DNA of 62,453 nt. Source: a virus (Duplodnaviria; Caudoviricetes). Positions 3,500 to 44,603 of the stretch are shown here, piece after piece. The translations under genes were made by a program, and so were the position numbers. The notes under the pieces are model-generated. The model had not been told where the DNA came from and made no database searches. It worked only from the letters and a program-made list of their open reading frames with translations. The DNA lies in IMG/VR virus record IMGVR_UViG_3300043436_001486, positions 1 to 62,453 of that record. One strand, given 5' to 3'. How positions within the stretch are numbered: the first letter of the stretch is position 1; every line of letters starts with the position of its first letter.

Positions 3500-6121
3500 A
3501 TGGCAATGAATAAGCAACGTAAAAGCTCAAACCTGCTGAACATACTAAACTATGACGATGCAGGTAATATAGTACTTAGAGACTACAGTCAGACTATTAG
3601 GTACAACTGGAACGGCACAATACACGCCTTTACGGGGCCCTTGAGCATCAGCTCAATAGCAGCTGCTGTGACGGACACAGACAGGTTCCTAGTCTCTGAC
3701 GGTGGTGTGCTTAAGTATAGGACGGGTGCTGAGGTATTGTCTGACATAGGTGCAATAGGCGGTAGCGGAACAGCAGGACAAGTTGCATATTGGAATGGAA
3801 CGAGTTCACAGACGGGTTCAAATAATTTGTTTTGGAATAGTGCAAATTCAAGATTAGGAATCGGTACTAATTCACCTTTATATAATTTGCATAATGTTGG
3901 AACATCTGCTTTTGATAATGGTGGAAGTGGAGATGCGATGGCAATTTTAAACAATGGTTACATTGTTTTAGGGTCAACAAGATTTAGAGCATTTGGTGCA
4001 ACTTTTCAATTTCAAGATGCTTCATTTAATACAAAAGTTTCATTTAATACTGGTGGTCAAGTAATTTTTAACACAGGTGGTAATGTTACAATAGGCACAC
4101 TAACCGATGGCGGTCAGCGTTTGCAGGTGCAGGGGACAACGTTGTTGAATGGTGCGACAACAATCAGCGGAAGTACAACTGCATCAAGTGCTATTGCAAG
4201 AGGTGGACTGCTGAACACTACCCTTGTCGCATCTGCAAACAATGATGTGCTTGTTGGTCTTGATGTAAACCCTACGTTTACAAATGGTGCGTTTACGGGG
4301 GTAAGTAATATTGCTCTTAGAGTTAATGGTTTTTTACAAGCGTCAAATTTTAAAACTACAATATCAGGAAATCCTAATCAATCTACAACAGTAATAATAG
4401 GAAGTGGTGTAGGGAATAATATTACCCAAGAAAATAATATATGTATAGGAGGAGTAAATAATGGTATAGGAAGAACAACTGCACAATCTTTAACAATCGG
4501 TGCAAATAATACAATAGTAGGACAAGGTTCTGCATCATATATAACAACTGGAAATCAAAATTCAGTTCTTGGAAGTAGGGCATTAGGTGGTAATAGTACA
4601 ACAATGTCCAGCAATATTGCATTAGGAGATGAGGCATTGCGTAATAATACTGGTAGTAACAACGTATCAGTAGGTGCTACATCAGCACTTAATGTAACAA
4701 GTGGAAGTGGCAATTTATTTTTAGGAGATAATGCTGCAAGGTTTCAAGCAAATGGTTCAACAAATCTTGCTCTTACTGGTAATAATAATATTTACATTGG
4801 TCAACAAGTAAGAGGATTTAACAACACAGACACAAATGCTATTGTAATAGGTAGCGTTGGTATTGGTTTAGGTTCTAACACAACAGTAATAGGCAATAGT
4901 TCAACAACGGATACTGCCATATATGGTAGGATGCTTGTAAACTATTCATCTCCTGTAATTGGTACTCATGCTCTCGATGTCAACGGCACTGCGAGGGTGA
5001 GAGAATACCTTTATATGTTACGTTCAGATGCTGCTACAACTGTTGCTGCTCTGACATTTCAGTCGGGAGGCACTATTGACATAGGAACTACATTTAGGGT
5101 ACTCTCAACAAATCGTTGGGATAATATAACAAGCAGTTCATCTTATATCCAAAATGGTTACACAACAAAAACATTTGTTACAACAAATGCGGCAAACGCA
5201 AGTTTTAGTTCATACGATTTTTCTGCTTCAAATGAATATCAACCAACGATTGCAAACTTATACACGCAAAAGTTGATAAATGGTGCTATGACAATTAATA
5301 GCACCGCTGGAACAAATAATTTTCATGGAATTTCTATATCTACAATAGATAATTCAGCATCAATTTCTAATAATGTGTATGCAGTATATGCTGATGCAAC
5401 ACTTGGAACAAATGCTTCAGCAAATCGTTGGGCGGGGTATTTTGTTGGGCGTGGGTATTTTAGTCAAGCATTATCAATCGGAACTAATTCTCCTTCTGCA
5501 TCAGCAATTCTACAAGCAGATTCCACTACTCGTGGATTCTTGCCACCTCGGATGACAAATGCACAAAAGAACGCAATCAGTAGTCCTGCGGCAGGGTTGG
5601 TAGTATATGACAATACAGACAACTACTTAAGCCTGTACAACGGAACTAACTGGCAGAATATTGTTTCTCCTAATTCTAGCGGTAACGTGCTTATAGGAAC
5701 TACTGCTGACCAAGGCTATCGCGTACAGATAACATCAGCAAGTGCAGACAGTCAACTAAACGTATGGGGAGCAGCATCTCCTTCAATCAGGCTTGACAAT
5801 GCAGCAAGTGGTGCAACACAAAGGTTTGTAATAGGATTAGCCACAGCTACAAATAACTTTATTCAAGGTGCAAATGCTGGAGACGTCTGTATGACACCCG
5901 GAACAAGCTCCGCATTAGTATTTGGAATGTGGCAAACCTCTAGCTCTAGTGAGGTTATGAGAATCTCAACATCCTCAAACGTGCTGATTGGGAAGAATAC
6001 AGACAGTGGGCAAAAGCTACAGGTGGTTGGCAAGGTAAACCTTACAAGCCTTCCAACATCAGCCACAGGACTTATGGCAGGCGACGTATGGAACAATGGG
6101 GGAGTCTTAAATATAGTCTAA
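3500..6121 (+). CDS. Tail fibre protein 2
   Basis: Same repeat modules as first fibre plus N..IG..AL trimeric-adhesin-like repeats; preceded by TAAATTTG box. Confidence 0.85.
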   Translation: MAMNKQRKSSNLLNILNYDDAGNIVLRDYSQTIRYNWNGTIHAFTGPLSISSIAAAVTDTDRFLVSDGGVLKYRTGAEVLSDIGAIGGSGTAGQVAYWNGTSSQTGSNNLFWNSANSRLGIGTNSPLYNLHNVGTSAFDNGGSGDAMAILNNGYIVLGSTRFRAFGATFQFQDASFNTKVSFNTGGQVIFNTGGNVTIGTLTDGGQRLQVQGTTLLNGATTISGSTTASSAIARGGLLNTTLVASANNDVLVGLDVNPTFTNGAFTGVSNIALRVNGFLQASNFKTTISGNPNQSTTVIIGSGVGNNITQENNICIGGVNNGIGRTTAQSLTIGANNTIVGQGSASYITTGNQNSVLGSRALGGNSTTMSSNIALGDEALRNNTGSNNVSVGATSALNVTSGSGNLFLGDNAARFQANGSTNLALTGNNNIYIGQQVRGFNNTDTNAIVIGSVGIGLGSNTTVIGNSSTTDTAIYGRMLVNYSSPVIGTHALDVNGTARVREYLYMLRSDAATTVAALTFQSGGTIDIGTTFRVLSTNRWDNITSSSSYIQNGYTTKTFVTTNAANASFSSYDFSASNEYQPTIANLYTQKLINGAMTINSTAGTNNFHGISISTIDNSASISNNVYAVYADATLGTNASANRWAGYFVGRGYFSQALSIGTNSPSASAILQADSTTRGFLPPRMTNAQKNAISSPAAGLVVYDNTDNYLSLYNGTNWQNIVSPNSSGNVLIGTTADQGYRVQITSASADSQLNVWGAASPSIRLDNAASGATQRFVIGLATATNNFIQGANAGDVCMTPGTSSALVFGMWQTSSSSEVMRISTSSNVLIGKNTDSGQKLQVVGKVNLTSLPTSATGLMAGDVWNNGGVLNIV

Positions 6122-21339: not shown

Positions 21340-21795
21340 TCATTTTGCAAGTGTAATTTTATAAGATGTTGTACTTGTTTTTGTAGGGCCAATAGCAGCT
21401 TCTCCATTCTCGTCAACAAGTGTATGTCCAGCAGGTATTTTCTTTAGTAAATCCTCTCTTTGCTTAAGTGCTGATGTTGATTCATCATTCCTTGCTTTCA
21501 GTTCAGCCCATGTAGAATCTCCAGAATAATCATACTTAACTCCCGTTTCAGCAGTTTCAATCTTGGCATCATAAATATTTACTTTCCCCCCTTGGTATTT
21601 ATAAAGCTCGTCAATCGTGTATTTATTTAGCCTTTCTCTGGCATCTTTAACGAACTCTTCAATAACTTTAAGCTGTAAGGCTACATCAATAGCATTTACT
21701 TCTCCGTTGTCAACTTGCTGAATAAGTATGTCTGACGCAATCTTGATGTCAGACTTGGTAGGTTTAAGGTTTTGTAGTTGTAGTTCCATTTTCAA
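21340..21795 (-). CDS. Hypothetical protein in recombination module
   Basis: ETGVKYDYS motif, coiled coil. Confidence 0.55.
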   Translation of the reverse strand: MKMELQLQNLKPTKSDIKIASDILIQQVDNGEVNAIDVALQLKVIEEFVKDARERLNKYTIDELYKYQGGKVNIYDAKIETAETGVKYDYSGDSTWAELKARNDESTSALKQREDLLKKIPAGHTLVDENGEAAIGPTKTSTTSYKITLAK

Positions 21796-21973
21796 TGTTT
21801 GTAGTGCGAATAATTGTTATTTCTGGTTGTGAAGTTCCATCAAGTACCCTTTCGTAAAATTCCATAGCCTTCTCGCTATTGTGGGACAATGAACCCGTTA
21901 CATACTCTCCATCAATACTTGTGTAGTACCAAATGACTTCTCCCTTTTTTTCTTTAACAAAATCTATTCTCAT
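21764..21973 (-). CDS. Small hypothetical protein
   Basis: Coupled to ERF gene. Confidence 0.55.
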   Translation of the reverse strand: MRIDFVKEKKGEVIWYYTSIDGEYVTGSLSHNSEKAMEFYERVLDGTSQPEITIIRTTNIENGTTTTKP

Positions 21974-22506
21974 GGTTTGGTGTTTAATTGTTCTTTAACT
22001 TCTTTAGAAAGCTTATACTTCTTCTCTACATCAGCAATGCTTCCGCCCTCCAGAACGTACTTGTGTGCTGCATCAAACTGCGTAGTGCCTTTGTTTAACC
22101 ACGGCTTACCATCGTCTTTCTTCTCCTCATGCGTGTTTGTTTCATCAGCATCCTTTGTGTCATCAATGGCAAACATTCCATTAAGGGCATACTTTCTGGC
22201 ATAGGATGAAGACGCGCCCGTAATCTGGCTGTCAGACATTCCCTTCTGCGTTTCTGGTTCTCTTGCAAAGGCTGAAACTGAAATAGAATCTGTACCATTG
22301 GAAACTTTGACAGTCGCCTTTACATATACCCTGTCGCCAATAATAGCCATGTCATCGCTGATTGTCAGTATGCAGTTATGCTTAAATAGTAAAGGCTTAA
22401 CGGCCTCAAGGATGTCTTCTGCGTTTCTGTACTTGTAGCCTCCAAACTTGTTGAATTGGGACTTAGGTGCTTTAAGTTCGTTCTGAATGTGTACTAATTC
22501 TTTCAT
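21970..22506 (-). CDS. erf: ERF-family single-strand annealing recombinase
   Basis: IQ.ELKAPK.Q.N.FG.Y.YR..EDILEAVKP; Q.TGA.SSYARKYAL.G.F.ID. Confidence 0.9.
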   Translation of the reverse strand: MKELVHIQNELKAPKSQFNKFGGYKYRNAEDILEAVKPLLFKHNCILTISDDMAIIGDRVYVKATVKVSNGTDSISVSAFAREPETQKGMSDSQITGASSSYARKYALNGMFAIDDTKDADETNTHEEKKDDGKPWLNKGTTQFDAAHKYVLEGGSIADVEKKYKLSKEVKEQLNTKP

Positions 22507-24788
22507 TGTTTATGTGCTTTTGGGTTTGATGTTATTCCATATTCGTAAAATGCAGAAAGGATTTTTACCTCTAATTCTTGGTTAACTTCCTCTATCTGTT
22601 TCTCATTTAGCGAATCGTGAAAATACTCACGAATGTATTTCTGTACCTTTTCAATTACATTGTCTTGTACTTGTTTCATAATTCTATGTGTGGTGTTGGT
22701 GGGAAATATTCTGCTGATGGTAGATTCTTTTCAGCATTGTTTACAATGCCTTTTACTCTTTGGTATATGTTTTCATCATGCCATATTGCGTGATGAACTT
22801 TAGCTATGAATACCATTCTGTCTGGTTCACTCATTCTTGCAAATGATGAAATGTTTTCTAAGATTTCTTTCATAAATTTAAGGTTTAACGATTGTTATAA
22901 CTGGCTTTTTCTTATTCCAATAGTGTTTTGCGTGCTTGATGCATCCGCATTGGCAGGTATATATTTCGTGCCTATACCTTTCAGCCTTGTGCAGACTTCT
23001 TATCTCCCACTTGTGCGGCTTGCTCGTTGTAATCTTCAAGAGTACTTGAAAAAACCCCAATAATGAATAATGGGAAAGGGAGTTTTGATTTGTCTTTCTT
23101 TGGCAACTTGTTCCAATCGTACTTGAGGGAATCGTAGTTTCTTGCTGTAAATTCATAAACTGCTTTTAAGGTTTGTTGTGCGTTCATTTTATTTGTTTAA
23201 TTTGTGTTCAATAGCATCAGCCAAGCTTAGTATTCCGTCAAGCAAAAATTCAAGGATGGTTGCCATGAGTATTAGCAAGAACCAAGCTGTCATTGGCAAT
23301 GCCAATACGATTAGTAGTAATATTTTCTTCATAATTTTAAGGTTGTGTGCAATTTAATAACTTGTTAGTTAATTGCCAAAATTATTTTCAGATTCAATCC
23401 AGCTATGGATTTGCTCAACTATGACACCAATGTGTTCTTTAGTCAATAACTTGGTAATGTCAATTTCTGGCAGTCCAATGAATCCCATTGTAATCTTCTG
23501 AATTTCTATGGTAACGTAGTCAAATTGGCTTACATTCCCATTAAACTCCCTTAATTCATTACTTTCTTCAATCGTGTAATGTGCGTCTATTGAGAACTTG
23601 TCTCCGTATGCAAGTGCTATTGTCTTCATAATTCTATTTCTAATGTTGTTAAGTATGTTGGGGAAAGTCTGCCATTCTCTTCGGCCACTCCTCTGTAATC
23701 GTAAATTCTTTCATCAGCCCACTTTCCATGACTGTCTTCATGTATGTTGATGAATCCTATTTCAGTTTCTACCAATGCGAATAAGTCATATTCGTGTTCT
23801 GTTGCAGTATAATCCCCGTTTTCGTACCAAGTCTGGCAAACTCCGTTAATCCATCCAATAATAACATGTCCTTTAATAGCATCAAGATTGTGTCCGCAAA
23901 CTTGAACAGCAAGTCCGCTACGCGTAACGCAATCGTAATCTGATGGCATACCTGCCTTGTATTTTACTTTTTTGTAGTTCATATTTCTGAATATTTAGGG
24001 TATCTCCCGTTTTTTGTAATGTTTATTTGTATTTCCTTAACCCTTCTGTCATCTGTTATGTCAAGGGAAAGTTTTGAGAATGTGTAGACGCATCGCTGCC
24101 CTTCATGGTATATTTCTATTGGCACTTCATCAAGTCCATACTTGTCATCTAACATCTTCAGCTGATTAAGTAATGCTTTTGCTGTCATAGGTTAATTAGT
24201 TCAATTATTTCCTCTGTGGATTCTATGGCAAATATTTTACTTGCCGAACCCTGCAAGTCTATTATTGAACCAGAACCATTCCTTGAAATTTGCAGGATTA
24301 ATGCTGAATTAATCCATTCATTGCCATACGTTGTTGTTACTTTAATAATCTTCATTGTTTTCAAATTTTTCGGTTTCGTTTTTGTAATATAATGCTATCC
24401 CTATCAGCCTATTAACAAGCTGCCATTCTGTTTCCATTGCTATTTTCATAGCATCTTCAACATTTTCTATTTCATCTCCTGCAAGTTCCATAATTGCTCT
24501 TACCATTAATTGTCTGTCCATTGTATTAAATTGTGTTGTCAGCTAATTTGTGTCCAATAATGTTATAAAGTTCAGCAGTTGGCCACCCTCCATTTTCTTC
24601 TATTGCCATGTAATCCAATGTGTCATGCTGAATGTCCTGCATGGTAAAGGTATTGTCAGTTGCACTAAGCCTAAAGTTTTCTATTATAATACTTTCAGCT
24701 TGTTCATAATTTTCAGCTTCAAATTGGTGGTATTCCCTAACCCAAATCGTGCATTTTCTGTCAATGTGAAATTCAAATTTGTCCATGT

Positions 24789-26339: not shown

Positions 26340-27900
26340 GTTATAATTTTATAAATTGGCAATAATTTTTAATTTCTGACAAGTCGATACGGCCATACAT
26401 TCGGCTTGAATAATATCCCTGCATCCTATACCTTTCAATCCAATTTGTAAGGCTATTTAGGGCCTCTTTCTGGCTTTTATAATACGGCTTGTCAAATTCT
26501 ATTGTGAATCCGTCTGGGCTTAAAATTTGGTACTTTGCCATGCTTATTTTTTAAATGCTTTATTCCATTCTTCAATCATTAAGTTTTGCAGTTCCCGAAG
26601 TTCAGCAAGGGTATTGCCCACAAACTGCTCAAAACTATAATGGATGCCATGTATTTTGTCCTGCATTGTCTGGATGTTGCAAATAATTTGCATAGCTTCG
26701 GCTTGTTGCTCAAATGACATTTTTTTAAATTTGTTCATGGTTTATTGTTTTAAATTTCAGCAGAAAATTGACATTGTCCTTCCCTTTCAATACATTCCTC
26801 AATCTTTTTGCCAAGTTTATAGTCGGCATATTCGCTAAGCATCCTATCCGTTATTCCTGCTTCATCAAGTTCTGAATCCGCGTAACCATTTCTTTCGGCA
26901 AAAAATTCTTCAATCTTCTGTAAATTTTCTCCCAAAATTTCCTCAATCCTTTTTAATTCATCTTTTACTTCCTGCAAATTGTCTTCTTCAAAATAGTATT
27001 CAATGCAACTTGGTTCACATTCAGCATCTGCCGAAAATCTTGATGCTGCATCGCTTGGCTGAACACCAAACCAAAATTTGCCGTTAATATCTCCGTTATA
27101 ATACCTTCCCATGATTGTGTTTTTTAGTGTGTTATTAAAATTTAAGTATTTGTAGGTAGTTTTGATATGCTTCATCATAAGTGAGTGCCCAAATCCTATA
27201 CCCGTCAATAATGAATAGCTTTTTTTCCATGATTGTGTTTTTTAGTATGTTATTAATTTTGTTTCCAAATTTCTCCTAACTGCTCAAATGTTTTCCAAGA
27301 TTCCAATACATTTTTGCCATATCTGGGTTTTTTGATGCAAATGTTAATGTACTTCATTTCTGAACGTTTTTTTGCATTGCGTTCTATTGTTTCAGCATCT
27401 TTCCATGAATCGCATACAACAATAAACTTGTTTGTCTTGTTTTCAGCCATGCCCCACCCACTAAAAAATTTGTCTGTCATGGTTACATAAATAGGCAACT
27501 TTTCTAATTTTACAATGGCTGAATCTGGGCACAATTCAAGCCTGCAAATTTCTTCCCTTGCTTGTTGTTCGTTGTTTGAGTAAACATAAATAACTGCATG
27601 GCCTTTGTCATGTTTTACTTTTGCTTTGTACTTAATCATTTCAAAAAATTTAAGGTTAAAAAATTGCAGGTTTTCGGGTTAGCCTGCATCCCATTAGGGT
27701 TAGTTAAAGAAAATAAATTCAACGCACTCCGCGTGTTCATCCATTCCCATGTCTTGAAAAGTTGTATAGCATCCATCAGCATCAGAAACAAAAACAAGGT
27801 TACAAACTTCTGAAACGATGGTTTTTCCGTAAATTTCAATGGCTTCTTTTAGTGTGGCTTTGCTCATTTTTTTTTGTTTTAGTGTGTTATTGTTTAGAAT

Positions 27901-28612: not shown

Positions 28613-29019
28613 GGTAAAAAATTTAAGGTTTTAAAATTGGCCCGAATTTCACGGGCCTAAATTCTGGGTTATTCGGCTTCTTCGTATGGTTCAAAGGTTT
28701 CTGCTTCGTGGTAGGTAGGGAAAAAATATTCTTCGCCATTGTCAAAGTTAGTAACCAAATATTCTACTTCACGGCCCAACATTGAACAAATGGAAATCCC
28801 ATTTTCTAAGGCAATGTAAACGTAACCCGAATTTGAATTGAAGCCAACCTCCAAAATTTCCTCTCCTGCTGAATAGTCAGAATAGGCAATAAAGCATAAG
28901 CCAAGCCCGTGGGCTTCGCAACATGCAACATAATTTGAATGGAATCCGTTGAACTGAATCTTTGAGCCCGTGTAATAATTTGAAATAGACATAAATTAAG
29001 GTTTTTGTTGTTATAAAAA

Positions 29020-29748: not shown

Positions 29749-30530
29749 TACTAACAAATTTCTGGTAGTTGTGTATGGATTGAAATAAGGCGAAATAAAG
29801 CAGGGAATTAACAAAGCAGGGTAAACAATTAGGCGAAGGGTTTAACGGCCTGCAATGGGTTGGTATTACTTTACATTATGTTTCTGGGTATTACCTTCAG
29901 CACATGAGCAGGAAAGGGAGTACAAAATTATTTTATCTGGTTAATTAGATTTTTTGTTTTATCCCTGCAAAGGTTGGGAGGGTTGCATCTGGGCATGATT
30001 AGGGGAATAGGGATATGGGGCAATCCCTACTAAACAAGTAGACTTCTCTTTGTTAAAGAAAAGTTAAAACGTAAACGTTAAAGAAACGTTAAAGAAATTT
30101 ATAGCATGGTACACGGGTTAGGGAAATGGACTTGCACCCCAGGGGGTGGTGACTGGCGCGGAGGGGAGTACCCCAACTACAAACTTATCTACCACTACTA
30201 CACCCATACCTACCCCATTTATACGTCAGCGCATACAATTTGCTCATCAGCACATTGCATATATTCATCAGCATATAAATACAATTGTATAGATGTAATA
30301 TATACTAATATAGAAACGCTATAACTCGTTGATAATCATAACTAATTATTCTACAGGGTTAGAATCGTTTTGTATGAAATTAGAATACACTCAATAATCA
30401 GCGTTTATTATGTGTTTACATGCTTAATAATTATAAGAAGGAAACTCCATAACATGCTGATAATCAATCATAGTATTCCGAAATACTGGAAAAAATTTGG
30501 ATAATACTGGAAAAGTAGTATATTTGCTAT

Positions 30531-31585: not shown

Positions 31586-31588
31586 ATC

Positions 31589-31658
31589 AGCTGAGTAGCT
31601 CAATGGTAGAGCACCCTATGGTTGAAAGGGAGATTACGGTTCAATTCCGTACCAGCTA
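31589..31658 (+). tRNA. Degenerate tRNA-like gene (anticodon unclear, possibly GTT)
   Basis: D-arm tagctcaatggtagagc, T-arm tacgg-ttcaatt-ccgta; bulged acceptor stem, non-canonical anticodon loop. Confidence 0.6.
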
Positions 31659-31968
31659 CAAGATACATTTGGCTGATTATAAATTTTTATATTTAGCCAA
31701 AAGTCAACCTGACATAAATAATATAATATGCTAAAAAGAGCTTATAATCAAGGTTACGAAGATGCTAAACTTGGACATGTAAACGATGCTGATGAGTATG
31801 TGGCACAGGCAGAGTACATGCTTGAGGACTATATTGAGAATACCGCCATAGCGGAGTGCGATAAAATGTGGGGGTTTGGAAGCGGTATGGAAGACGCTTT
31901 TATAATGGGAGCTAAGTGGGCATTAAAGAACGCATAAATGGAATATTTGTGCCGTTTTATAACACATC

Positions 31969-32038
31969 AGCGCTGTAACTTAAAGGCAAAGGCTGGGTTC
32001 ATAGCTCGGTTACTCCCGTTCGATTCGGGACGGCGCTA
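31969..32038 (+). tRNA. tRNA with CAT anticodon (Met or Ile2), atypical
   Basis: Acceptor agcgctg/cggcgct, loop tt-CAT-ag, T-arm tcccg-ttcgatt-cggga. Confidence 0.7.
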
Positions 32039-32076
32039 CAATAAACAAATGTGTTTATTTTTTTAGGTATAAGTAA

Positions 32077-36041: not shown

Positions 36042-38396
36042 ATGCAGTTCTCAAGTATGGATGAACTCCTTAGTATGTCTATGGACGCTCCTTCAAAGAA
36101 AAGAAGGATGGAGTACGGATTAAAGGTAGCGCAAGGTATATTTAATTCAGCTGACAGGAATACCGATGGGTATTATGGGAAGCGCTATAGGCAATGGAGA
36201 GCAAACAGAGACTTCAGCTATGGTACAAATAGCATGAAGGAGTTCATGGACTTGATGCGTATTGAGGGGAATCAGTCATATATTAATCTTGACTGGACAC
36301 CAATTAAGATTGCCCCTAAGTTCGTAGAAATACTTCTTGGTGGATTTATGAATAGGAAAGAGGTTCCTTCCGTTACAGCTGTTGACGACATGAGCACCAG
36401 CGCTAAGGAAGAGGAGAAGCAAGAGGCTAAGTTCCGCATGGAAAATAAGGAAAAAATCATGCAGATTGAGGCGGAGATGGGCGAAAAGATTGAAACACAG
36501 AAGTATATTCCAGAAGACGAAGACGATTTGGCCCTGTATTTTGATTTAGAGTACAGGCTTCCAGAAGAAATATTGTTTGAGCAGCGTATTAAGAAAGTAT
36601 TTGACAATAACGACTATCCCGTAATGAAGCGCAAGATTCTAAGGGATTTGATTGACACCAACTTTGCTTGGACTAAACTTAGTTACGACCCGAATGACAA
36701 CATAAAAATCAGCATACCGAAGCCAGACAACATGATTTATAACGTGTTTGAGTCTGACAGCGGCAGGGACATTTCATACGTTGGGGAAGTTTACCCAATG
36801 AAAATCTCCGTACTTAGGCGTAAGTACAATGTAGACGAAGAGACTTTGTTCAAGCTTGCACAAAAAGCATCTAGGGAGCTGAAGAGAAGCGAGAATCTGT
36901 ATTGGAAGGACTCATACAAGTATACAGAGATTCGCCCTTATGACGACTATTCCGTACTAATTTTTGACTTTGAAGTTAAAAGCGTAGACGTAGAGTATTC
37001 GGTAAAGACTGAAAACAAGTTTGGGAATATGCTGGTTGTCCCAAAACAAGGAAAGCCAGTAGCGCCTAAAGGACAAGAGATTGTTGGAGAGGTTATTGAG
37101 ACAAAGCGGATGAACATATACCAAGGAATTTGGGTATGCGACACCGACATCATGCTGAAGTGGGAAATTAGTCCTAATCAAATTAGGCCTTACCAAAACG
37201 GAGTTGACGTATTTTTCTCTTATTCAGTCATCAGCCCTAACGCAACAGGTTCTCTAATCCCATCAATGATTGAAAGGGCGCTTGGCCCAATAAGGCAAAT
37301 GGTTCTTATTCGCCTTAAGATGCAGCAGCTGATTGCTACAATGAGGCCAGACGGCTACATGATTGACATTTCTGGATTAAGAGATGTTGACTTGGGCTTA
37401 GGAGATTCTGTAGAGCCGCTGAAGCTGATGAAGATTTGGGACCAAACTGGTAGAGTGTATTATGATTCTACTGGAGATGACGGAGAAAGAAAGTCTCCTC
37501 CCATTACTCCGCTTCCGTCTAACCAGAACGTTTCAATGCTGAATACTTTGGTTGCGCAGTATAACTTTGAACTGGAAAGACTTAGGGAAGAGATGGGCAT
37601 TTCTGAATACAGAGACGGTTCATCAATACCAGCAAAGACTGGACTCGGTGTAATGCAGCAGCAGGTTCAATCATCTAACAACGCAACAGAATACATTTAT
37701 CAATCTTGCGTACATCTTCTTGAAGAGACTGGAATGAAGATTTCTATGATGCTTTGGGATTCAATAGTCCTAAAGGCTAAGAAGTTTAAGGAGTTTGAGG
37801 GTTATGAGATGAGCCTTTTGGACATGACTTTTGACGTAAGAGTTAACATGATTAATGACGACCAGAGCCGTGCTGAATTAACGCAGTTAATGAATACTGC
37901 ACTTGCTGCTGGCATGATTACCTATGAGCAAGCCTTTAAAATTAAGCATATTGAAGATGTAAAGCTTGCCGAGTTGTACTTAGCAAGAAGCATGAAGAAG
38001 GCCAAGAAAGAAGCGCAAGAGACTGCCCAACAGAACGCACAGATGAACGCACAGATTCAGCAAGAATCAGCTGCCGCTAAAGCGCAGGGAGATGCACAAC
38101 TGGAGCAAATGATGGCAGAAAGCAAGATTGCGGTTAATAGAAGTAAGAATGACGGAGACAAAGAAATAGAATTAATTAAGTTTGCTACCACAATGTACGC
38201 TTCAGCAGTAGGCAAAGGAATTGAACTTCCTGCCGAAATCAAACAGTTTGCTGACACCATTTTGGGCAACGCAATTCAGCCACAAATGCAAGAACAAGCA
38301 GCACAACAAGCTGCAATGGAACAGCAAATGATGGCAGAAGAGCAACCAATGGAAGTTACAGAGGAGCAAATTACGGAAGAAATGCCTCCCCAATAA
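36042..38396 (+). CDS. Portal protein
   Basis: SYINLDWTPI.I.PKFV.I, QTG..Y, E.MGI...RDGS, Q-rich C-terminal barrel; TATATTTG at 36015. Confidence 0.85.
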   Translation: MQFSSMDELLSMSMDAPSKKRRMEYGLKVAQGIFNSADRNTDGYYGKRYRQWRANRDFSYGTNSMKEFMDLMRIEGNQSYINLDWTPIKIAPKFVEILLGGFMNRKEVPSVTAVDDMSTSAKEEEKQEAKFRMENKEKIMQIEAEMGEKIETQKYIPEDEDDLALYFDLEYRLPEEILFEQRIKKVFDNNDYPVMKRKILRDLIDTNFAWTKLSYDPNDNIKISIPKPDNMIYNVFESDSGRDISYVGEVYPMKISVLRRKYNVDEETLFKLAQKASRELKRSENLYWKDSYKYTEIRPYDDYSVLIFDFEVKSVDVEYSVKTENKFGNMLVVPKQGKPVAPKGQEIVGEVIETKRMNIYQGIWVCDTDIMLKWEISPNQIRPYQNGVDVFFSYSVISPNATGSLIPSMIERALGPIRQMVLIRLKMQQLIATMRPDGYMIDISGLRDVDLGLGDSVEPLKLMKIWDQTGRVYYDSTGDDGERKSPPITPLPSNQNVSMLNTLVAQYNFELERLREEMGISEYRDGSSIPAKTGLGVMQQQVQSSNNATEYIYQSCVHLLEETGMKISMMLWDSIVLKAKKFKEFEGYEMSLLDMTFDVRVNMINDDQSRAELTQLMNTALAAGMITYEQAFKIKHIEDVKLAELYLARSMKKAKKEAQETAQQNAQMNAQIQQESAAAKAQGDAQLEQMMAESKIAVNRSKNDGDKEIELIKFATTMYASAVGKGIELPAEIKQFADTILGNAIQPQMQEQAAQQAAMEQQMMAEEQPMEVTEEQITEEMPPQ

Positions 38397-38453
38397 ATAG
38401 TTTGTGTGTGTTTCATGGTTACGGGCGAGGTTTATACCTTGCCCTCTTTTTTT
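38397..38453 (+). ncRNA. Antisense-plus-hairpin element 1 / terminator
   Basis: gggcgagg-tttata-ccttgccc plus T-tract, preceded by tttgtgtgtgtttcatggtt. Confidence 0.55.
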
Positions 38454-38524
38454 GTTAGTAAAAAAATTATTATATATTTGCTTAGTAGTTTAAGGACAAG
38501 TAAATCCTAAAAACAATAATAAAT

Positions 38525-39745
38525 ATGGAAATAGTAGACATTGTGCAAGAATACGCACAAACACAAGAACCAACGCCACAAACTCAAGAAACACAAACAG
38601 AAAGCTCTTTAACAAATGAAACGACAACTACGGAGGTTTCTTCTGCTCCTGCTCCTGAAAGTGTTACCAACGAATCGGCTTACGAATCGCTGCTATCGGG
38701 TAAAACTAACATAAGCGAAGAGCAAACACTAGAGCCAACTACAGAACAATCAGCTGATGTTATTCAAATGAACGCAGCTGATGTTCAAAGTGAAGACGCT
38801 AGTGGAATGGAAGATGTTATTGATGAGGACGACTTCATCAAAAGCAAAACCGAAGGAAAGTTTTCTTCATGGGAGGAAGTGTACGAAGCTTTAGAGCAGC
38901 AGGCACAACCCAAGTTTGAAAATGAATTGTCAGAAGCCGTCTACAATATGCTTCTTGAGGGCAAGACAGAGGAAATTTTTGAAATTCTAGGCACAAAACA
39001 ATTTGCTGATGATGTTCAAAACCTTCCAGACGAAGATGTCCTTAAAGCATATATCAAGGTTAACAACCCAGATTTTGACGACAATGACGTAGAAGACGAA
39101 TTTAACGAATCTTATTCTATTGATGAGTACCAGTTTGACGAATCAAAGCTTAAGAGGGAACAAAAAAAGCTGTCCCAGCGCATTAAAAACGATGTGCAAG
39201 ACGCAAAGCAGTTCTTTGAGAATCTAGCTCAGGACATAAAACTTCCTGAATTGTCTAGGCGACAAGTGGAACAAGCGCCACAAGAAGATGCAGAAATGGA
39301 CGCAATGATTCAAGAACAAAGGTCATTGTATCTTAACTCACTTAATGGCGTAGAATCCAGAATTGGCACGTTGCCTTTCCAATGGAGAGACGACAAAGCT
39401 AATATGTCTGTCAATGGTAAGTTTGACATCCCTGCGCAGGAGTTGTCAAAATACAGGCAGGCAGCAGAGAACCTTGAAGACTATCAAGTAAACAGGTACT
39501 ACAAAGACGGTCAGTACCAGTCAGACAAGATGGTTAAGGAACTTTACATAGCCGACAATTTTGACAAAATCCTAAATTCAGCTATTTCACAAGCGGTTAA
39601 TCAAACCCGTTTAGAGATGCTGAAGCAGAGCAAAAACATTCAATCAGAACAGTTTACGTCTGGTACATTTAAACCAAATGCAGCGGATGACGAGAGAGCA
39701 ATGCTTGACCAGTTATTCATGGGACATTTAAGACGACAGAGTTAA
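38525..39745 (+). CDS. Capsid scaffolding protein
   Basis: Very acidic, between portal and MCP. Confidence 0.7.
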   Translation: MEIVDIVQEYAQTQEPTPQTQETQTESSLTNETTTTEVSSAPAPESVTNESAYESLLSGKTNISEEQTLEPTTEQSADVIQMNAADVQSEDASGMEDVIDEDDFIKSKTEGKFSSWEEVYEALEQQAQPKFENELSEAVYNMLLEGKTEEIFEILGTKQFADDVQNLPDEDVLKAYIKVNNPDFDDNDVEDEFNESYSIDEYQFDESKLKREQKKLSQRIKNDVQDAKQFFENLAQDIKLPELSRRQVEQAPQEDAEMDAMIQEQRSLYLNSLNGVESRIGTLPFQWRDDKANMSVNGKFDIPAQELSKYRQAAENLEDYQVNRYYKDGQYQSDKMVKELYIADNFDKILNSAISQAVNQTRLEMLKQSKNIQSEQFTSGTFKPNAADDERAMLDQLFMGHLRRQS

Positions 39746-39766
39746 TAACTTTTAAAAACAAATAAA

Positions 39767-41179
39767 ATGCCTAATTCATTCCCAGCATATAGCCAAGGCG
39801 CTATATCAAGTTCGGCAACAAACAGAGCTTTGTTGAACGACTTAAATATTTTTGACCGTTCTTTCGAGAAGAATCTCGTTAGAAAATACGGCGCAGAGAA
39901 CTACGCTATCGTACAGATGGCCCTCGGTAATTCAGTTACTGAAGCCAAAAGCGACAACCGTTTGTTCTACCATTATGAGAAGCGTGGATTGCACCAAGCA
40001 GTTTCAGTAAAGGCAGCAGTTGTTGCACCAGCAGCAGGCGCTAACGTTACTGTAACCATTGGTAGCTCTTCTGCAACCACTTTTGCAAATGACCCTTCTT
40101 ACTACAGCTCATCACTTCCTCTTCGCCCCGGTGAAGTTGTTCGTATCATGACTTCTGGTATTGAAGGTCAAGTTGTTTCAGTTTCTACTGGAGCTTATCC
40201 TTTGACTGCTGTAATTCGTCCTCTTGTTGCAGCTCAAGCTTTTGTTTCAGCTGGTTCCGCCAACCTCCTTGCATCTGATTTCTTGATGCTTCGTGGTGCT
40301 GTTAACATCGGTGAAGGCTCTACAGTTCTTAATGGCATGTCTCCAATCTTGGATAAGATTGAGAACACCACTACAGAGCACAGGGACGACTTTACCATCA
40401 CTGACAGGGCTTCAATCGAGAAGAACGAAGTTGATTTCGGTAACGGAAACTTCTACTACTACTACCTCGCCCAAGACGACATGAACAGGCGTTACATGAA
40501 CAACGCTTTCTTCAAAATCATGGAAGGTGTTGCCGTAGATAACATTACCGGTACTGTTGGTACAACTGGTGTTATTCCTCGTGTAGCTGCTGGTGGTAGC
40601 ACTATTCAGTACACTTCTGGCCAGTTTGGTGGTTCTACTGGAACTGACATGTCTAATATGCAGACAATCACTCGTTCTTTGAACTTCTACGGCGGTTCTG
40701 GAGAGTATCATTTCTTGCAAGACATCTATCAGCGCCAAGAGGTTAACAACCTTCTGTTTGGTAAGTACGCTAACGGCGCCATCTCTTATGGTTCTGTAGG
40801 CGGAAGCCAAGAAGCTGCTGCGTCTTATGGATTTAGCTCCTTTATGATTGATGGTTACACTTTCCACTTCTTCTTGAACAACATGTTCAGCCCAGAAGCT
40901 GTGTACCATATCAATCCGGGTTCTTTGACTCCTGAGAAGCGCAACTATGGTGTATTGATTCCTCAAAAAATCAACAGCGATGCTAAGACTGGTAAGCAGT
41001 TCCCAAGCTTCCAAATTGTATTCCAAGAGGTTAACGGACAAAGGATTTTGACTACCGAAACTGGTATGCTTGCTCCACAGAACAAGACTACTACGGCTAA
41101 TAAAACCTTGAGCATGTTGTCCTATCCTGGAGTTCGCGTGTTCGCGGCAAACCAGTACGCCATAGTCGAAGGCGTGTAG
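39767..41179 (+). CDS. Major capsid protein
   Basis: Position, size and highly biased codon usage; GT.G.IP and YGF.SF...GY.F motifs. Confidence 0.85.
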   Translation: MPNSFPAYSQGAISSSATNRALLNDLNIFDRSFEKNLVRKYGAENYAIVQMALGNSVTEAKSDNRLFYHYEKRGLHQAVSVKAAVVAPAAGANVTVTIGSSSATTFANDPSYYSSSLPLRPGEVVRIMTSGIEGQVVSVSTGAYPLTAVIRPLVAAQAFVSAGSANLLASDFLMLRGAVNIGEGSTVLNGMSPILDKIENTTTEHRDDFTITDRASIEKNEVDFGNGNFYYYYLAQDDMNRRYMNNAFFKIMEGVAVDNITGTVGTTGVIPRVAAGGSTIQYTSGQFGGSTGTDMSNMQTITRSLNFYGGSGEYHFLQDIYQRQEVNNLLFGKYANGAISYGSVGGSQEAAASYGFSSFMIDGYTFHFFLNNMFSPEAVYHINPGSLTPEKRNYGVLIPQKINSDAKTGKQFPSFQIVFQEVNGQRILTTETGMLAPQNKTTTANKTLSMLSYPGVRVFAANQYAIVEGV

Positions 41180-41215
41180 AACTACTTGATAATCAATTAG
41201 TTATACTACATAAAG

Positions 41216-41247
41216 AAATCCCTGCCATTAATTTGGCGGGGATTCTT
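41216..41247. terminator. Hairpin between convergent MCP and GIY-YIG genes
   Basis: aatccctgcca-ttaatt-tggcggggatt. Confidence 0.6.
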
Positions 41248-42097
41248 ATTTATAGCTTATCATATATCTTCCGTAAGCAATACGATTTTTCTTTATCGAA
41301 TTAACTATATGAGGAGCCTTACCCTTTATTTTGTTGCATAATTCTGTTATAGAATTTGAACTAAATTCTTCTCCAGATATTATGTCTTTTATAATAAGTG
41401 GCTTTATGCACTCATTATTGTACCTCCTGCGAATCTCATCGTAAATTCCTTCTATTACATTTTCTTTGTAAATAAATACATATCCTTTTACTGTCTTGCT
41501 TTTGTTATGAAGAGAGTTCTTAATCAGCATTTTCGGTATTCCCATTTGCATTTCTATTTCCATTGCTGATGGGTATTCGGCAATAAATCCGTTTTTGTCA
41601 TATACCATTACTGGTTTAGTTTGTTCAGCATAGTGCTCTCTTAATTTTACCTTTGCGGAATCTTTCATTTTTTTACCTTTCTTAATGTCTGAAAAGTATT
41701 TCAAATGCTCTTCGTCCCATTTTAATCCAGTTCTTCCTTTCATCTTGTCCTTGGCTTCCTGCGTATGCTTGTAGCCTATAGGACTTCCTGCTTTTCTGGC
41801 TATGTTAAATCCATTGTCGTCAAATGGCTGAAAAATGTCAAGGTATAGTTGCTCTACCTTCAGCAAGTCTTCCTTCTCGCAGGCGTGTACAGCGCTGAAT
41901 GTTAGGTGTTCTATTCCGTACTTATTTGCAAAATTCTTCAGCTTAGGATTGCACCCTTCGTTATGAGTTATTTTCTTCTTGTGAACAGCGTACCTTTGCT
42001 TGAATGATGTTGCGCTTCCTATGTACACTCTTGCGTCAATGTCGTTTGTTATAACGTAGATTCCTGTTTTTGACTTAAGGTTGTTTATGTAGTTCAT
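41246..42097 (-). mobile_element. GIY-YIG homing endonuclease with NUMOD repeats
   Basis: GIYVI...VYIGSA...R...H, E..Y.D, GFNI, GYKHT.E.K.KM; own TATATTTG 4 nt before ATG 42097. Confidence 0.88.
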
Positions 42098-42170
42098 ATT
42101 GCAAATATACAAACTCCTAGTTAACTAAAGAATTATTTCTTATTTAATTAAATATTTTTAGCTTTGTTAA

Positions 42171-42225
42171 GCATGACGTGTTTAGTGTTTAATTGTTTAA
42201 GGCTGGGTTTCTACCCGGCCTTTTT
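42171..42225 (+). ncRNA. Stand-alone small RNA candidate (element 2)
   Basis: TAGCTTTG -7 box at 42159-42166, then about 30-nt antisense segment, ggctggg-tttcta-cccggcc and T5. Confidence 0.6.
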
Positions 42226-42236
42226 ATATTAAAGTT

Positions 42237-42265
42237 TGGCACGTTGTTTGCAATAAGTATATTTG
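42237..42265 (+). promoter_or_regulatory. Sigma54-consensus site adjacent to a TATATTTG box
   Basis: TGGCAC-gttgt-TTGCA at 42237-42252; TATATTTG at 42258-42265. Confidence 0.45.
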
Positions 42266-42295
42266 TAACAAGTTATTTAACTAAAAACAATAATT

Positions 42296-43219
42296 ATGTC
42301 GAAAGCAACATCCGAGTTGGCAAGTACACCAACTCAAGGGACGCAGCCTTCTTTAAGTTTTAAGAAAGCTACTACCAAAAAAGCAAAGAAGAAACCAGAC
42401 ATGTACGTATTTAGGCTGGTTTACGAACATCCAAAGATGTATGAGGGTTCTAGCATTTTTCCTCCAAGGTTTACTGTAACTAATCAAGACAATGTTTTGT
42501 TTAATTACGGTACAGAAGATGAGCCAGATTTTAGGCCAAGGCAAATTAGGTACTTGGATGGATTCCCTACAATCTTTGTAGACGAGCAAGAAGAAAAAAG
42601 TAACATTACTGATTCTGTTACGGGAAATCCAAAGAATGTCATCAGCTTTGACAACGGGCACTTAACCGTACCAGCATGGAATAAGCCTTTGTATGACTTT
42701 CTTATGGCATCTAACCAATGCGAGCAGAATAAAAATAAACTAAAGCAAGTTAAAAATACATTTAGGCTGCTTGATTTTGCTAACTCTGACGTTGACGTTG
42801 TAGAGATTGGCAAGAGAAAAGACTTAGCTTATGACATGGCCCGTAACGCCTCACTTGATGAGATGATTCCACACGCAAAATTCCTAGGTATTTCATTCGT
42901 TCACGCATCAACTGGAGAAGAGAGAGATTGGGATGCGGTACGTGAAGATTATAAATCAAAAGCGCTTGAAAATCCAGAAAACTTCCTTTTATTTGCAAAC
43001 AACCCAAGAATTAAGACAATCTTCTTGATTGAGAAGGCGCTTGAAAGAGGGGTTATTACGACAAATCTGGTAAAGGGGCAGCTACATTGGTTAAGTTCAA
43101 AGCAGCTGATTACTCCACTAGACACAAGTAAAAATGTAAAAGAAGCTATTGCTGACTTTGCTACAACTGAAGAAGGGGATTCTTTTCTCAGGACACTCAA
43201 AGTTCAGTTAAGTCTGTAA
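42296..43219 (+). CDS. Conserved virion/head-module protein
   Basis: R.IRY.....IFVDEQ..I.F..G.L.V motif; follows MCP. Confidence 0.6.
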   Translation: MSKATSELASTPTQGTQPSLSFKKATTKKAKKKPDMYVFRLVYEHPKMYEGSSIFPPRFTVTNQDNVLFNYGTEDEPDFRPRQIRYLDGFPTIFVDEQEEKSNITDSVTGNPKNVISFDNGHLTVPAWNKPLYDFLMASNQCEQNKNKLKQVKNTFRLLDFANSDVDVVEIGKRKDLAYDMARNASLDEMIPHAKFLGISFVHASTGEERDWDAVREDYKSKALENPENFLLFANNPRIKTIFLIEKALERGVITTNLVKGQLHWLSSKQLITPLDTSKNVKEAIADFATTEEGDSFLRTLKVQLSL

Positions 43220-43274
43220 CGTTCATAAATTTAAGGTTAACGAGGCTGGGTTTCTACCTAGCCTCTTTTTTTTT
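43220..43274 (+). ncRNA. Antisense-plus-hairpin element 3 / terminator
   Basis: gttcataaatttaaggtt then gaggctggg-tttcta-cctagcctc and T9. Confidence 0.6.
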
Positions 43275-43299
43275 CTTATATTTGTATAAATTAGCATGC

Positions 43300-43965
43300 A
43301 TGAATGTCAATGATGTCTATAGTTTAATGCGATTCATTGCAAGAAAGAATCAGCTGACGAGTTTGTCTCCAGCTGAATTTCAGTATGCGTTTAATGCAGG
43401 TAGTAGAAATTATTACGATTTTTTAGTTGGTAGAATAGAGCAATACAGGTACGACAAGCCAACGCCTAGGGTTGGACTTTCAATGACAGACAATGTAGTC
43501 AGCAGGCTTTCTCCTTTCATGGTAAGCGCAACTCCTGCCGTTGCTTCTGGTTCTGTTACTAAGCCAGCAGGATTTAATAAGCTGCTTTCAATGAACACGC
43601 CTACAAACTTTTCAATGAAAAGGTTTGAGCAGAACAGGCTTGCCGAAAGATTGCAGGATTCTATAGACCCCGTAAACGAAGCAAATGCATTTTACGTTGA
43701 AGAGTCAAGCGTATGGAAGGTATACCCTACAACACTCGCTAGTGTTACAATAAAGTACCTTACCTTGCCTACGGACATCGTATGGGCATTTACTCTTGAC
43801 GGAAGCGGAAGGCCTGTGTATAACCCCGTAGGAAGCGTTAATCCGCAATGGTATGACAATGACATTGATGAGGTTGTTGGCAGAGCGCTGAAAATACTTG
43901 GGGTGTCGATTAAAGAAGGAGCATTACTTAATTACGGCCAACAGGTCATACAATCTGGAGAATAA
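43300..43965 (+). CDS. Tail tubular/ring (adaptor) protein
   Basis: L.P.EF..AFN, I.Y...P, A..ILG..IKE; position. Confidence 0.65.
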   Translation: MNVNDVYSLMRFIARKNQLTSLSPAEFQYAFNAGSRNYYDFLVGRIEQYRYDKPTPRVGLSMTDNVVSRLSPFMVSATPAVASGSVTKPAGFNKLLSMNTPTNFSMKRFEQNRLAERLQDSIDPVNEANAFYVEESSVWKVYPTTLASVTIKYLTLPTDIVWAFTLDGSGRPVYNPVGSVNPQWYDNDIDEVVGRALKILGVSIKEGALLNYGQQVIQSGE

Positions 43966-44603
43966 TGGCAAGTACAACAAGGAAGCAGCTTATTGACAGA
44001 ATACTCCGCTATTACTACGACGGGGTTCCAGATGAGGCTGCCACTATTACAGAAAATGAAGTAGACTTATACATAAATGACGCAATAGCTTCAGTTATGA
44101 ATAAGCAGGCTATGGACGCATATAATATTACAGGTATTATGTCCGTTCCAGAAGGCTATGTTACTACTTATACAATCAGCACTCCTTCTCTAAATGACAG
44201 CACAGGATTTTATACGTCTTCAATACCGCATCCTCCAATGGGACTTCCCGGAGATTCTGGTGTTGTTGGTGTATATTTTGGTGGAGGAATGGGGCAGAGC
44301 AAACCAGTCTTGTATGTAGCTCCACATGAAGTGGACTATTTTATGTTCATGCCAAAGCCTCCTCAAGCAGCATTTTACTGGATTGAGGGTTCTACTATTT
44401 ACTTTTGGGCCAGAACAGACTTGACTAGAACTAATGACACTATTTATATAAGGATGGCGACTAACGTTCAAGGGAATAATGCAACTGTTTTAAATATTCC
44501 TCCAGACGCAATTGACTTGGTATTTAGTTCTGTAATCCAGAAGCTGATGCCAAGAAAAGGAATAGTGCAAGATTTGATTAATGACGGAAGCGAAATAGCA
44601 TAA
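43965..44603 (+). CDS. Tail ring protein
   Basis: Position and size; ends D..NDG. Confidence 0.55.
   Translation: MASTTRKQLIDRILRYYYDGVPDEAATITENEVDLYINDAIASVMNKQAMDAYNITGIMSVPEGYVTTYTISTPSLNDSTGFYTSSIPHPPMGLPGDSGVVGVYFGGGMGQSKPVLYVAPHEVDYFMFMPKPPQAAFYWIEGSTIYFWARTDLTRTNDTIYIRMATNVQGNNATVLNIPPDAIDLVFSSVIQKLMPRKGIVQDLINDGSEIA

Follow-up and report, generated by a model that had tools for sequence, protein, structure and literature searches.

The closest described counterparts of the elements reported here are the FopS/GibS small RNAs (sRNAs) of Bacteroides thetaiotaomicron. As set out in the parts of the FopS report on which we draw (PMC11697453), these RNAs pair next to start codons and block initiation, one of them, FopS-10, abolishing the in vitro translation of its target, and the start codons concerned are those of mRNAs for exported or outer-membrane proteins. 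Fourteen members are described there (9 intergenic, 4 antisense and 1 derived from a 3' untranslated region, or 3' UTR), with sigma-ABfr promoters among the intergenic ones and a seed whose 70% consensus, TTTTTCAT...ATTTAAGGTTAAC, is followed by a terminator (PMC11697453). The RRM protein RbpB binds the single-stranded 5' seed region of FopS, as seen in its footprint in cross-linking and immunoprecipitation (CLIP), and counteracts it; FopS is conserved within the Bacteroidaceae, and the sequence is mentioned in one Caudovirales phage (PMC11697453). Here we describe three plus-strand elements (38397-38453, 42171-42227 and 43220-43274) in IMG/VR virus record IMGVR_UViG_3300043436_001486 (Duplodnaviria; Caudoviricetes), the whole of which (62,453 bp, 38% G+C, rated 100% complete) was analysed and is called the window below. 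By sequence and comparison they are terminators of late transcription units, and we hold, with slightly more confidence than doubt, that they also carry FopS-like anti-start seeds, through which RNAs made late would occlude the start codons of early phage mRNAs, host mRNAs or both.

The window is divided into a rightward block (30.5-62.4 kb, continuing through 1-11.1 kb), which contains the portal gene (36042-38396) together with virion and tail genes, and a leftward block (29.4 to 11.3 kb), which contains Erf, primase/helicase and, at its far end, the large terminase; from this gene content we infer that the rightward genes are late and the leftward genes early. Each element consists of a G/T-rich tract containing CAT directly upstream of a hairpin. 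Element 1 begins right after the portal stop codon (38394-38396), its tract occupying positions 38397-38422 (+) of the portal 3' UTR, with the core TTTCATGGTTAC at 38411-38422, and its terminator hairpin GGGCGAGGT-TTAT-ACCTTGCCC, the loop of which is closed by T-A and G-C, occupying 38423-38444 (+), with a U-tract to 38453. Element 2 (42171-42227, +) has its tract at 42171-42198 (CATG ... GTGTTTAAT ... TTTAAGG), its hairpin AAGGCTGGGT-TTCT-ACCCGGCCTT at 42199-42222 and its U-tract at 42223-42227. Element 3 begins right after the stop codon (43217-43219) of gene 42296-43219, in whose 3' UTR the tract lies at 43220-43241 (+; TTCAT at 43222-43226 and TTTAAGGTTAAC at 43230-43241), followed by the terminator hairpin GAGGCTGGGT-TTCT-ACCTAGCCTC at 43242-43265 (+) and a run of 9 U to 43274. 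All three stems are G+C-rich, 9-10 bp long and topped by G-U/UUNU/A-C, and the T-tract comes next. The string GGTTT[CA]TACC occurs three times in the window, always on the plus strand and exactly at the three element sites. Terminator-like hairpins (stem of at least 7 pairs, at least 4 GC pairs and at least 6 T in 9) number four in the whole window, all of them on the plus strand between 38.4 and 43.3 kb; one of these, T1 (41217-41244, +; loop TTAATT), which follows the virion-protein gene (39767-41179, +), is outside the family and was used as an internal control. Fold z-scores of the hairpins range from -3.4 to -4.0.

Relatives were gathered at 27 loci via the portal gene and at 10 via gene 42296 (protein identity to the window 60-100%; handles such as G001 and L048 are our own), and variants were assigned to the element 1, element 2, element 3 and T1 classes by hand from synteny, the element 3 of G002 being added to the variant set separately on account of a C-A mismatch in the stem; many of the variant sequences are related, and the variant counts given below are not counts of independent events. 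A covariance model built from 11 element-1 homologues alone (model R1) retrieved the other two elements from the window (element 2 at 41.3 bits, E 7e-7; element 3 at 30.5 bits, E 2e-4), where the next match has E 0.89. Their counterparts in G002 and L048 were detected as well, as was element 3 of G001, all these matches having E values of 7e-7 to 6e-4. The model does not match T1. By this comparison the three elements are a real family, and the single design that the preliminary description of this DNA had claimed for them is borne out, both in the sequences themselves and in the retrieval of elements 2 and 3 by a model of element 1.

Covariation was counted for the element 1 stem. Across 11 distinct sequences, 96.1% of the cells are paired (31-60% in slid controls), 5 of the 11 pairs are changed on both sides (19 cells), and none of 500 shuffles reaches the covariation score; 13 cells are G-U, which would be A-C mismatches if read on the minus strand. 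Because the stem covaries and its G-U cells would be A-C on the minus strand, we concluded that the hairpin has been selected as a plus-strand RNA. Sequence features of an intrinsic terminator were found, namely, a GC-rich stem-loop with a U-tract downstream of a gene and, for element 1, a stem kept by compensatory change. On the combined evidence of sequence and comparison, each element is a Rho-independent terminator that acts as plus-strand RNA and closes a late transcription unit (that of the portal, a short unit and that of gene 42296-43219, respectively). Metatranscriptome contigs from four runs, which stem from 90-99% relatives, cover 38.5-41.1 kb and parts of 42.3-43.2 kb, and one of them (38395-38943) crosses element 1.

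Conservation is higher in the tract before the hairpin than in the stem. All 11 distinct element-1 sequences have the same TTTCATGG, T28 and loop top while their stems differ, and the tract takes two conserved forms in relatives, TTTCATGG.. and TTTCAT..TTTAAGGTT. TTCAT is found at most 38 nt upstream of the hairpin in 11/11 element-1, 6/9 element-3 and 3/11 element-2 variants, compared with 0/10 T1 variants and 4.3% of 7,454 background windows. Mini open reading frames (ORFs) that begin on the opposite strand at these CATs run for 1 to 48 codons, and because their lengths vary to this extent, no protein explains the conservation of the tract. The conserved tracts argue for a function. They are not the freely variable guide of the preliminary description, each position instead keeping its own conserved seed of the FopS R1/R1' type. 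The loop is kept in relatives, as that description had anticipated (TT[ACT][TC] in 11/11 element-1, 8/9 element-3 and 6/11 element-2 variants, and in 2/10 T1 variants). A protein bound to the loop, which it had also envisaged, found no support, and the FopS partner RbpB binds the single-stranded 5' part of its RNA in what we draw on from the FopS report (PMC11697453).

A strict element-1 pattern matched 25 viral contigs, 23 of them with a hairpin stem; in 185,579 species genomes it matched 10 bacterial contigs, none with a stem, and no host-encoded copy was found. Since the stems were found on viral contigs only, the element-1 version of the design appears to belong to phages. In four viral loci (L210, L224, L229 and L230), an element-1-like unit follows directly on the T-tract of a hairpin whose end is likewise TTCTAC, giving tandem copies. 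The idea that a hairpin loop with UUCAUAA mimics an anticodon loop was rejected, the upstream stems being weak and not conserved.

Bacteroidota promoters of the sigma-ABfr type have the consensus TTTG / TAnnTTTG. A scan for the full consensus (TTTG, 18-22 nt, TAnnTTTG) gave only three sites on the plus strand of the window, at 30496, 38451 and 42235, and the last two are upstream of genes. The promoter TTTG-N-TATATTTG at 38451-38480 (+), directly after element 1, would serve genes 38525-41179, and contigs of three metatranscriptome runs begin just past it, at 38494-38500, a weak hint in its favor; that at 42235-42265 (+), directly after element 2 and conserved in relatives, would serve gene 42296-43219. 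A -7 box also follows element 3 (43277-43284, +). Among the three elements, only element 2 has promoter-like boxes of its own, a candidate -7 box TAGCTTTG at 42159-42166 (+) with a -33-like TTTC at 42136-42139 and a 19-nt spacer. Of 11 element-2 variants, 10 have a TAnnTTT[GA] box 23-39 nt upstream of the hairpin, and 7 of the 10 also have a -33 TTT[GC] 19-21 nt above that box; in most lineages, no box precedes element 1 or element 3. Element 2 looks like a separate gene for a predicted stand-alone RNA of ~57 nt starting near 42171. The claim that all three elements are short RNA genes may hold for element 2, with its promoter-like boxes, but not for elements 1 and 3, each of which forms the 3' UTR and terminator of a late mRNA. 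A small protein from element 2 was rejected as a candidate, the frame having 19 codons in the window and 6 in G002 and not being conserved by eye.

How far the family resembles FopS can be stated motif by motif. Like FopS/GibS as represented in the parts of the report that we use (PMC11697453), the elements place a seed, predicted to be single-stranded, directly before a Rho-independent terminator, and the order of the seed motifs UUUUUCAU(A/G)GU and AUUUAAGGUUAA is shared. In predicted folds the seeds are for the most part unpaired, and the terminators come next in all three. Element 1 has GTGTGTTTCATGGTTA, to be compared with the FopS 5' seed start GUGUUUUUCAUGGUA, and element 3 has both TTCAT (UUCAU) and AAATTTAAGGTTAAC (AUUUAAGGUUAAC). 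The spacing of 8-9 nt that separates the two motifs in FopS is kept in the element-3 homologues of L048 and G003. The resemblance is partial: element 1 has only GUGUGUUUCAUGGUUA, element 2 has CAUG and UUUAAGG, and the whole seed is not matched. Unlike FopS, the elements have shorter seeds, elements 1 and 3 each holding only part of the bipartite seed, and a different hairpin with a conserved U-UUCU-A top; two of the three are without a promoter, in the 3' UTRs of late genes, and they come from freshwater phages whereas FopS comes from gut Bacteroidaceae. From the sequences, convergence on the same start-region motif seems just as likely as descent from FopS. True FopS genes occur in seven IMG/VR contigs (L064, L073, L095, L097, L115, L134 and L119) and, as three tandem copies, in a Prevotella genome (L197). 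The distance from the FopS gene to a tRNA gene is ~0.3-0.6 kb in L073 and L097 and ~6 kb in L115.

Other known RNAs share single features with the family. The 3'-UTR-derived sRNAs CpxQ, SroC and DapZ of enterobacteria depend on Hfq and RNase E. As in the elements described here, their seed is just upstream of the terminator of the parent mRNA, from which they are released by processing or an internal promoter; the parents here differ in being mRNAs of phage structural genes. Among phage RNAs that occlude start regions, sar of P22 is a cis-antisense RNA and c4 of P1/P7 is processed from the leader of its own operon, and lambda, too, reportedly encodes an sRNA, according to one preprint. All of these resemble the elements in being phage RNAs that control the translation of phage or host mRNAs in the lytic program, but none is known to consist of a multicopy seed fused to the terminators of late genes or to mimic a family of host sRNAs.

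The complement of the seeds, (TT)AACCTTAAA-N-ATGAAA, is found at the starts of the small leftward genes at 22.8-23.3 and 27.6-28.6 kb. There are eight copies of AACCTTAAA in the window, all on one strand, and six of them lie 3-10 nt before leftward ATGs; no (TT)AACCTTAAA leader was found at the rightward gene starts inspected. Viral contigs gave 82 matches to the pattern, 29 of which open ORFs of at least 60 amino acids (aa); 9 of the 82 have a terminator-like hairpin after them, and 7 contigs among the viral matches are those that carry the true FopS genes. In four Bacteroidota genomes there were 22 matches versus 2 for a reversed control, and 10 of 13 inspected non-FopS matches there open ORFs of at least 169 aa, several with N termini that look by eye like signal peptides. 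As judged from these genomes and contigs, the seed complement is a genuine start-region type of Bacteroidota and their phages, and the tracts are anti-start in sense, as had been claimed, their CAT being aligned to the ATG of leftward genes. Placed 2-11 nt before ATGAAA, (TT)AACCTTAAA recurs in the leftward phage genes (21763-28630, -), in viral loci L062-L141 and in the four Bacteroidota genomes.

Some of the matches extend well beyond the shared motif. Positions 43222-43238 of element 3 are complementary at 17/17 positions to 22869-22885 (-), the start region AACCTTAAATTTATGAA of a 65-aa ORF (22676-22873), with a duplex energy of -20.3 kcal/mol that is reached by 0.02 of shuffled guides, and at 16/17 positions to 23328-23344 (-), the start of a 47-aa ORF (23189-23332) that resembles a membrane peptide. 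This 17-mer has eight matches in the window at no more than 3 mismatches, 1.1 being expected, and none of 100 shuffles reaches eight. We regard it as convincing because the AACCTTAAA copies are all on the same strand, six of the eight just before leftward ATGs. For element 2, positions 42180-42197 match 21975-21992 at 17/18 positions (by eye), within a candidate target region (21971-21992, -) at the start of a 69-aa ORF (21764-21973). That start overlaps the stop codon of Erf (ATGA, 21970-21973) and is not the start of Erf itself; because of the overlap, the matched sequence belongs to the final part of the coding region of Erf. Among ungapped matches on the same strand, the best has a score of 17 for element 3 (reached by none of 300 dinucleotide shuffles) and 15 for element 2 (shuffle fraction 0.010, borderline); for the control tract before T1 (41217) the best such match has a shuffle fraction of 0.64. 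Median seed duplex energy is more negative against leftward than against rightward start regions in all six comparisons, and the control tract behaves in the opposite way. In the relative G001 (96% complete), a leftward ORF of 131 aa is matched over 14 nt, across its start, by element 1. Duplexes of the seeds with the start of their own late gene or of the one that follows are not to be found among the strongest late-gene duplexes, nor do any of these beat shuffles. The seeds may act as generic anti-start sequences with occasional long matches. The preliminary description had listed the long matches of elements 2 and 3 at these minus-strand gene starts, and they stand; of the further leaders that it likened to element 3, those at 27641 and 28614 match with 3 mismatches, but those at 28992 and 29429 share only 8-mers.

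Beyond the terminator role and the conservation of the elements, we infer a base-pairing role together with its targets, processing and timing, as follows. The 20-30 nt upstream of each hairpin would be a single-stranded seed of the FopS/GibS R1/R1' kind (UUUUCAU(G/A)G.. and ..UUUAAGGUUAA), complementary to start regions of the type (UU)AACCUUAAA-N-AUGAAA. The promoter of element 2 itself would yield a ~57-nt RNA that has the seed at the 5' end; the seeds of elements 1 and 3 would travel on abundant late mRNAs or be released from these as sRNAs derived from the 3' UTR. By pairing across start codons late in infection, the RNAs of all three would keep initiation from taking place, much as FopS-10 does in vitro. 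Several small leftward, presumably early, phage genes are candidate targets, host mRNAs for exported or outer-membrane proteins are probably further ones, and the late phage genes would be spared by their different leader.

A number of results weigh against this proposal. The best ungapped match of element 1 is ordinary (score 10, shuffle fraction 0.88), in keeping with the earlier remark that its matches are weaker. With 60 shuffles per element, duplex energy against start regions beats shuffled guides for element 3 only (0.02), the fractions being 0.13 for element 2, 0.18 for element 1 and 0.22-0.83 for all elements of G001. The expectation that the matches would exceed shuffled controls is thus upheld for element 3, upheld by identity only for element 2 (0.010) and not upheld for element 1. 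Elements 2 and 3 of G001 match nothing beyond chance (fractions 0.46 and 0.51), nor do the elements of G002 and G003, whose early regions are incomplete. The covariation of guides with early-gene leaders that the preliminary description had predicted was not found in the relatives, element 1 of G001 being alone there in having a match (14 nt). CAT is lost in L004, G002 and G001 element 3, and in one relative with a 100%-identical protein TAT replaces it. Exact repeats of 17 nt are not rare in this genome, which has four such pairs, and the seeds are complements of translation initiation regions by composition, so that top matches at gene starts are partly built in. The metatranscriptome contigs are unstranded and cover neither element 2, element 3 nor the stretch of the homing endonuclease gene that precedes element 2, a gap that is no sign of their absence. 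The model of Rfam family RF04319 (BTncRNA_FopS) can be aligned with the whole of element 3, at 25.7 bits (per-genome E 0.003; E 1 across 4,227 families), far below the 56-bit gathering score, which leaves the element outside FopS, and gives no match to elements 1 and 2 at E up to 10 or to seven loci of relatives; real FopS genes, used as positive controls (the seven IMG/VR contigs and the Prevotella genome), score 69-82 bits. Conversely, model R1 misses real FopS genes, with a best score of 10.9 bits.

Of the other explanations, the one that survives best is that the elements are terminators only and that the upstream tract serves termination efficiency, 3'-end protection or the binding of an RbpB-like RRM protein of the host (or its titration by late mRNAs). 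We consider this possible, although unlikely. The terminator features are solid, the seeds are conserved without covarying targets, for which a terminator-only role accounts, the energy tests are mostly not significant, and the 5' seed region of FopS coincides with the CLIP footprint of RbpB in B. thetaiotaomicron in the part of the report that we use (PMC11697453). However, T1 works in the same genomes without any such tract (0/10), the tract is the complement of a real start-region type, CAT included, and the extended matches of 14-17 nt fall exactly on leftward start codons.

We regard it as improbable that element 2 is a promoter-proximal terminated leader, read through only in the presence of a phage antiterminator and not trans-acting, after the model of the short PR'-tR' transcript of lambda. 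The promoter boxes 23-39 nt before the terminator, the position of which is kept upstream of a late gene, would fit such a leader. Against it, the full-consensus promoter at 42235-42265 lies between the terminator and the gene, and because this separate promoter serves the next gene, read-through is unneeded and element 2 is not required as a leader; moreover, element 2 has the seed and hairpin design in common with the 3'-UTR elements, and no antiterminator gene was found among 28 ORFs scanned.

The notion that the minus strand is the meaningful one, the elements being start-region modules (hairpin, AACC leader and ATG) left as rearrangement relics or as tiny antisense ORFs, can draw on the hairpin-leader-ATG plus 8-9 codons that elements 2 and 3 form on that strand, like the junctions at 28622 in the window and 559 in G001, and on weak plus-strand RF04319 matches opposite several leftward start regions, but it is marginally less probable still, given that the G-U pairs leave the hairpins valid only on the plus strand, where the U-tracts also are, that the mini-ORF lengths (1-48 codons) are not conserved, that no minus-strand promoter box was seen by eye around the elements (no dedicated scan was made) and that CAT is kept across lineages with 76-99% portal identity, which argues against a relic.

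The surroundings of T1 and element 2 vary among relatives. In the window, a homing endonuclease gene (41246-42097, -; matches to phrog_314 and other PHROG families of the GIY-YIG/HNH kinds) is inserted between T1 and the element 2 promoter boxes. In G001, G002, L032, L047 and L049, T1 is directly followed by element 2 with no homing endonuclease between them, and in relatives without this gene element 2 is within 40-70 nt after T1; L010 has a different sequence at the breakpoint. The T1 loop is conserved in a form of its own, (CC)ATTAATTTGG (window 41217-41244; L008 5832; G001 T1). In G002, a TTTG inside the T1 loop lies 20 nt before the element 2 -7 box, and the loop may double as a -33 box there; as a general role for the loops this was rejected, since it fits only the T1/element 2 promoter of G002 (20-nt spacer) and, by eye, not elements 1 to 3.

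Lake and freshwater metagenome runs index DNA near-identical to positions 38300-43400 of the window, and megablast found no match to positions 38000-44000 among GenBank phages. No Pfam family was found for nine proteins (those of the late genes around the elements and of the candidate target ORFs), and at gathering thresholds the sole Rfam match in the window was a tRNA. There are genes for tRNA-Asn(GTT) at 31588-31659 and tRNA-Met(CAT) at 31969-32039, only the first of which was given by the Rfam gathering threshold. The longest internal repeats, 4093-4143 versus 498-548 (51 nt, 90% identity) and 27227-27256 versus 27109-27138 (30 nt, 97%), are unrelated to the elements.

The regulation of Bacteroidota by sRNAs is not known to have been worked out outside gut Bacteroides. 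The FopS report mentions the single phage copy of FopS in passing (PMC11697453). In the literature on FopS and on phage-encoded small RNAs in Bacteroidota, titles and the openings of abstracts mention no phage elements of the kind described here. On a minimal reading, the late transcription units of a phage group are now mapped, with their promoters, their terminators and a conserved terminator top. If the proposal is true, start-codon-occluding RNAs made of a seed and a terminator would extend to environmental Bacteroidota phages, and phages would copy, or converge on, a host sRNA design. In the wider picture that we offer tentatively, anti-start seeds like those of host sRNAs have become joined, in a widespread group of freshwater Bacteroidota phages, to the terminators of the late genes that are expressed most strongly. 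Such phages would flood the cell with RNAs that occlude (UU)AACCUUAAA-N-AUGAAA starts, shutting off their own early genes and the host's exported or outer-membrane proteins at once while the late genes escape. This would be an RNA-only switch from early to late expression and for host shut-off in a phylum without Shine-Dalgarno-led initiation and without Hfq, and, if true, would provide a simple model of temporal control and host shut-off in the phages of a phylum whose translation initiation departs from the textbook.

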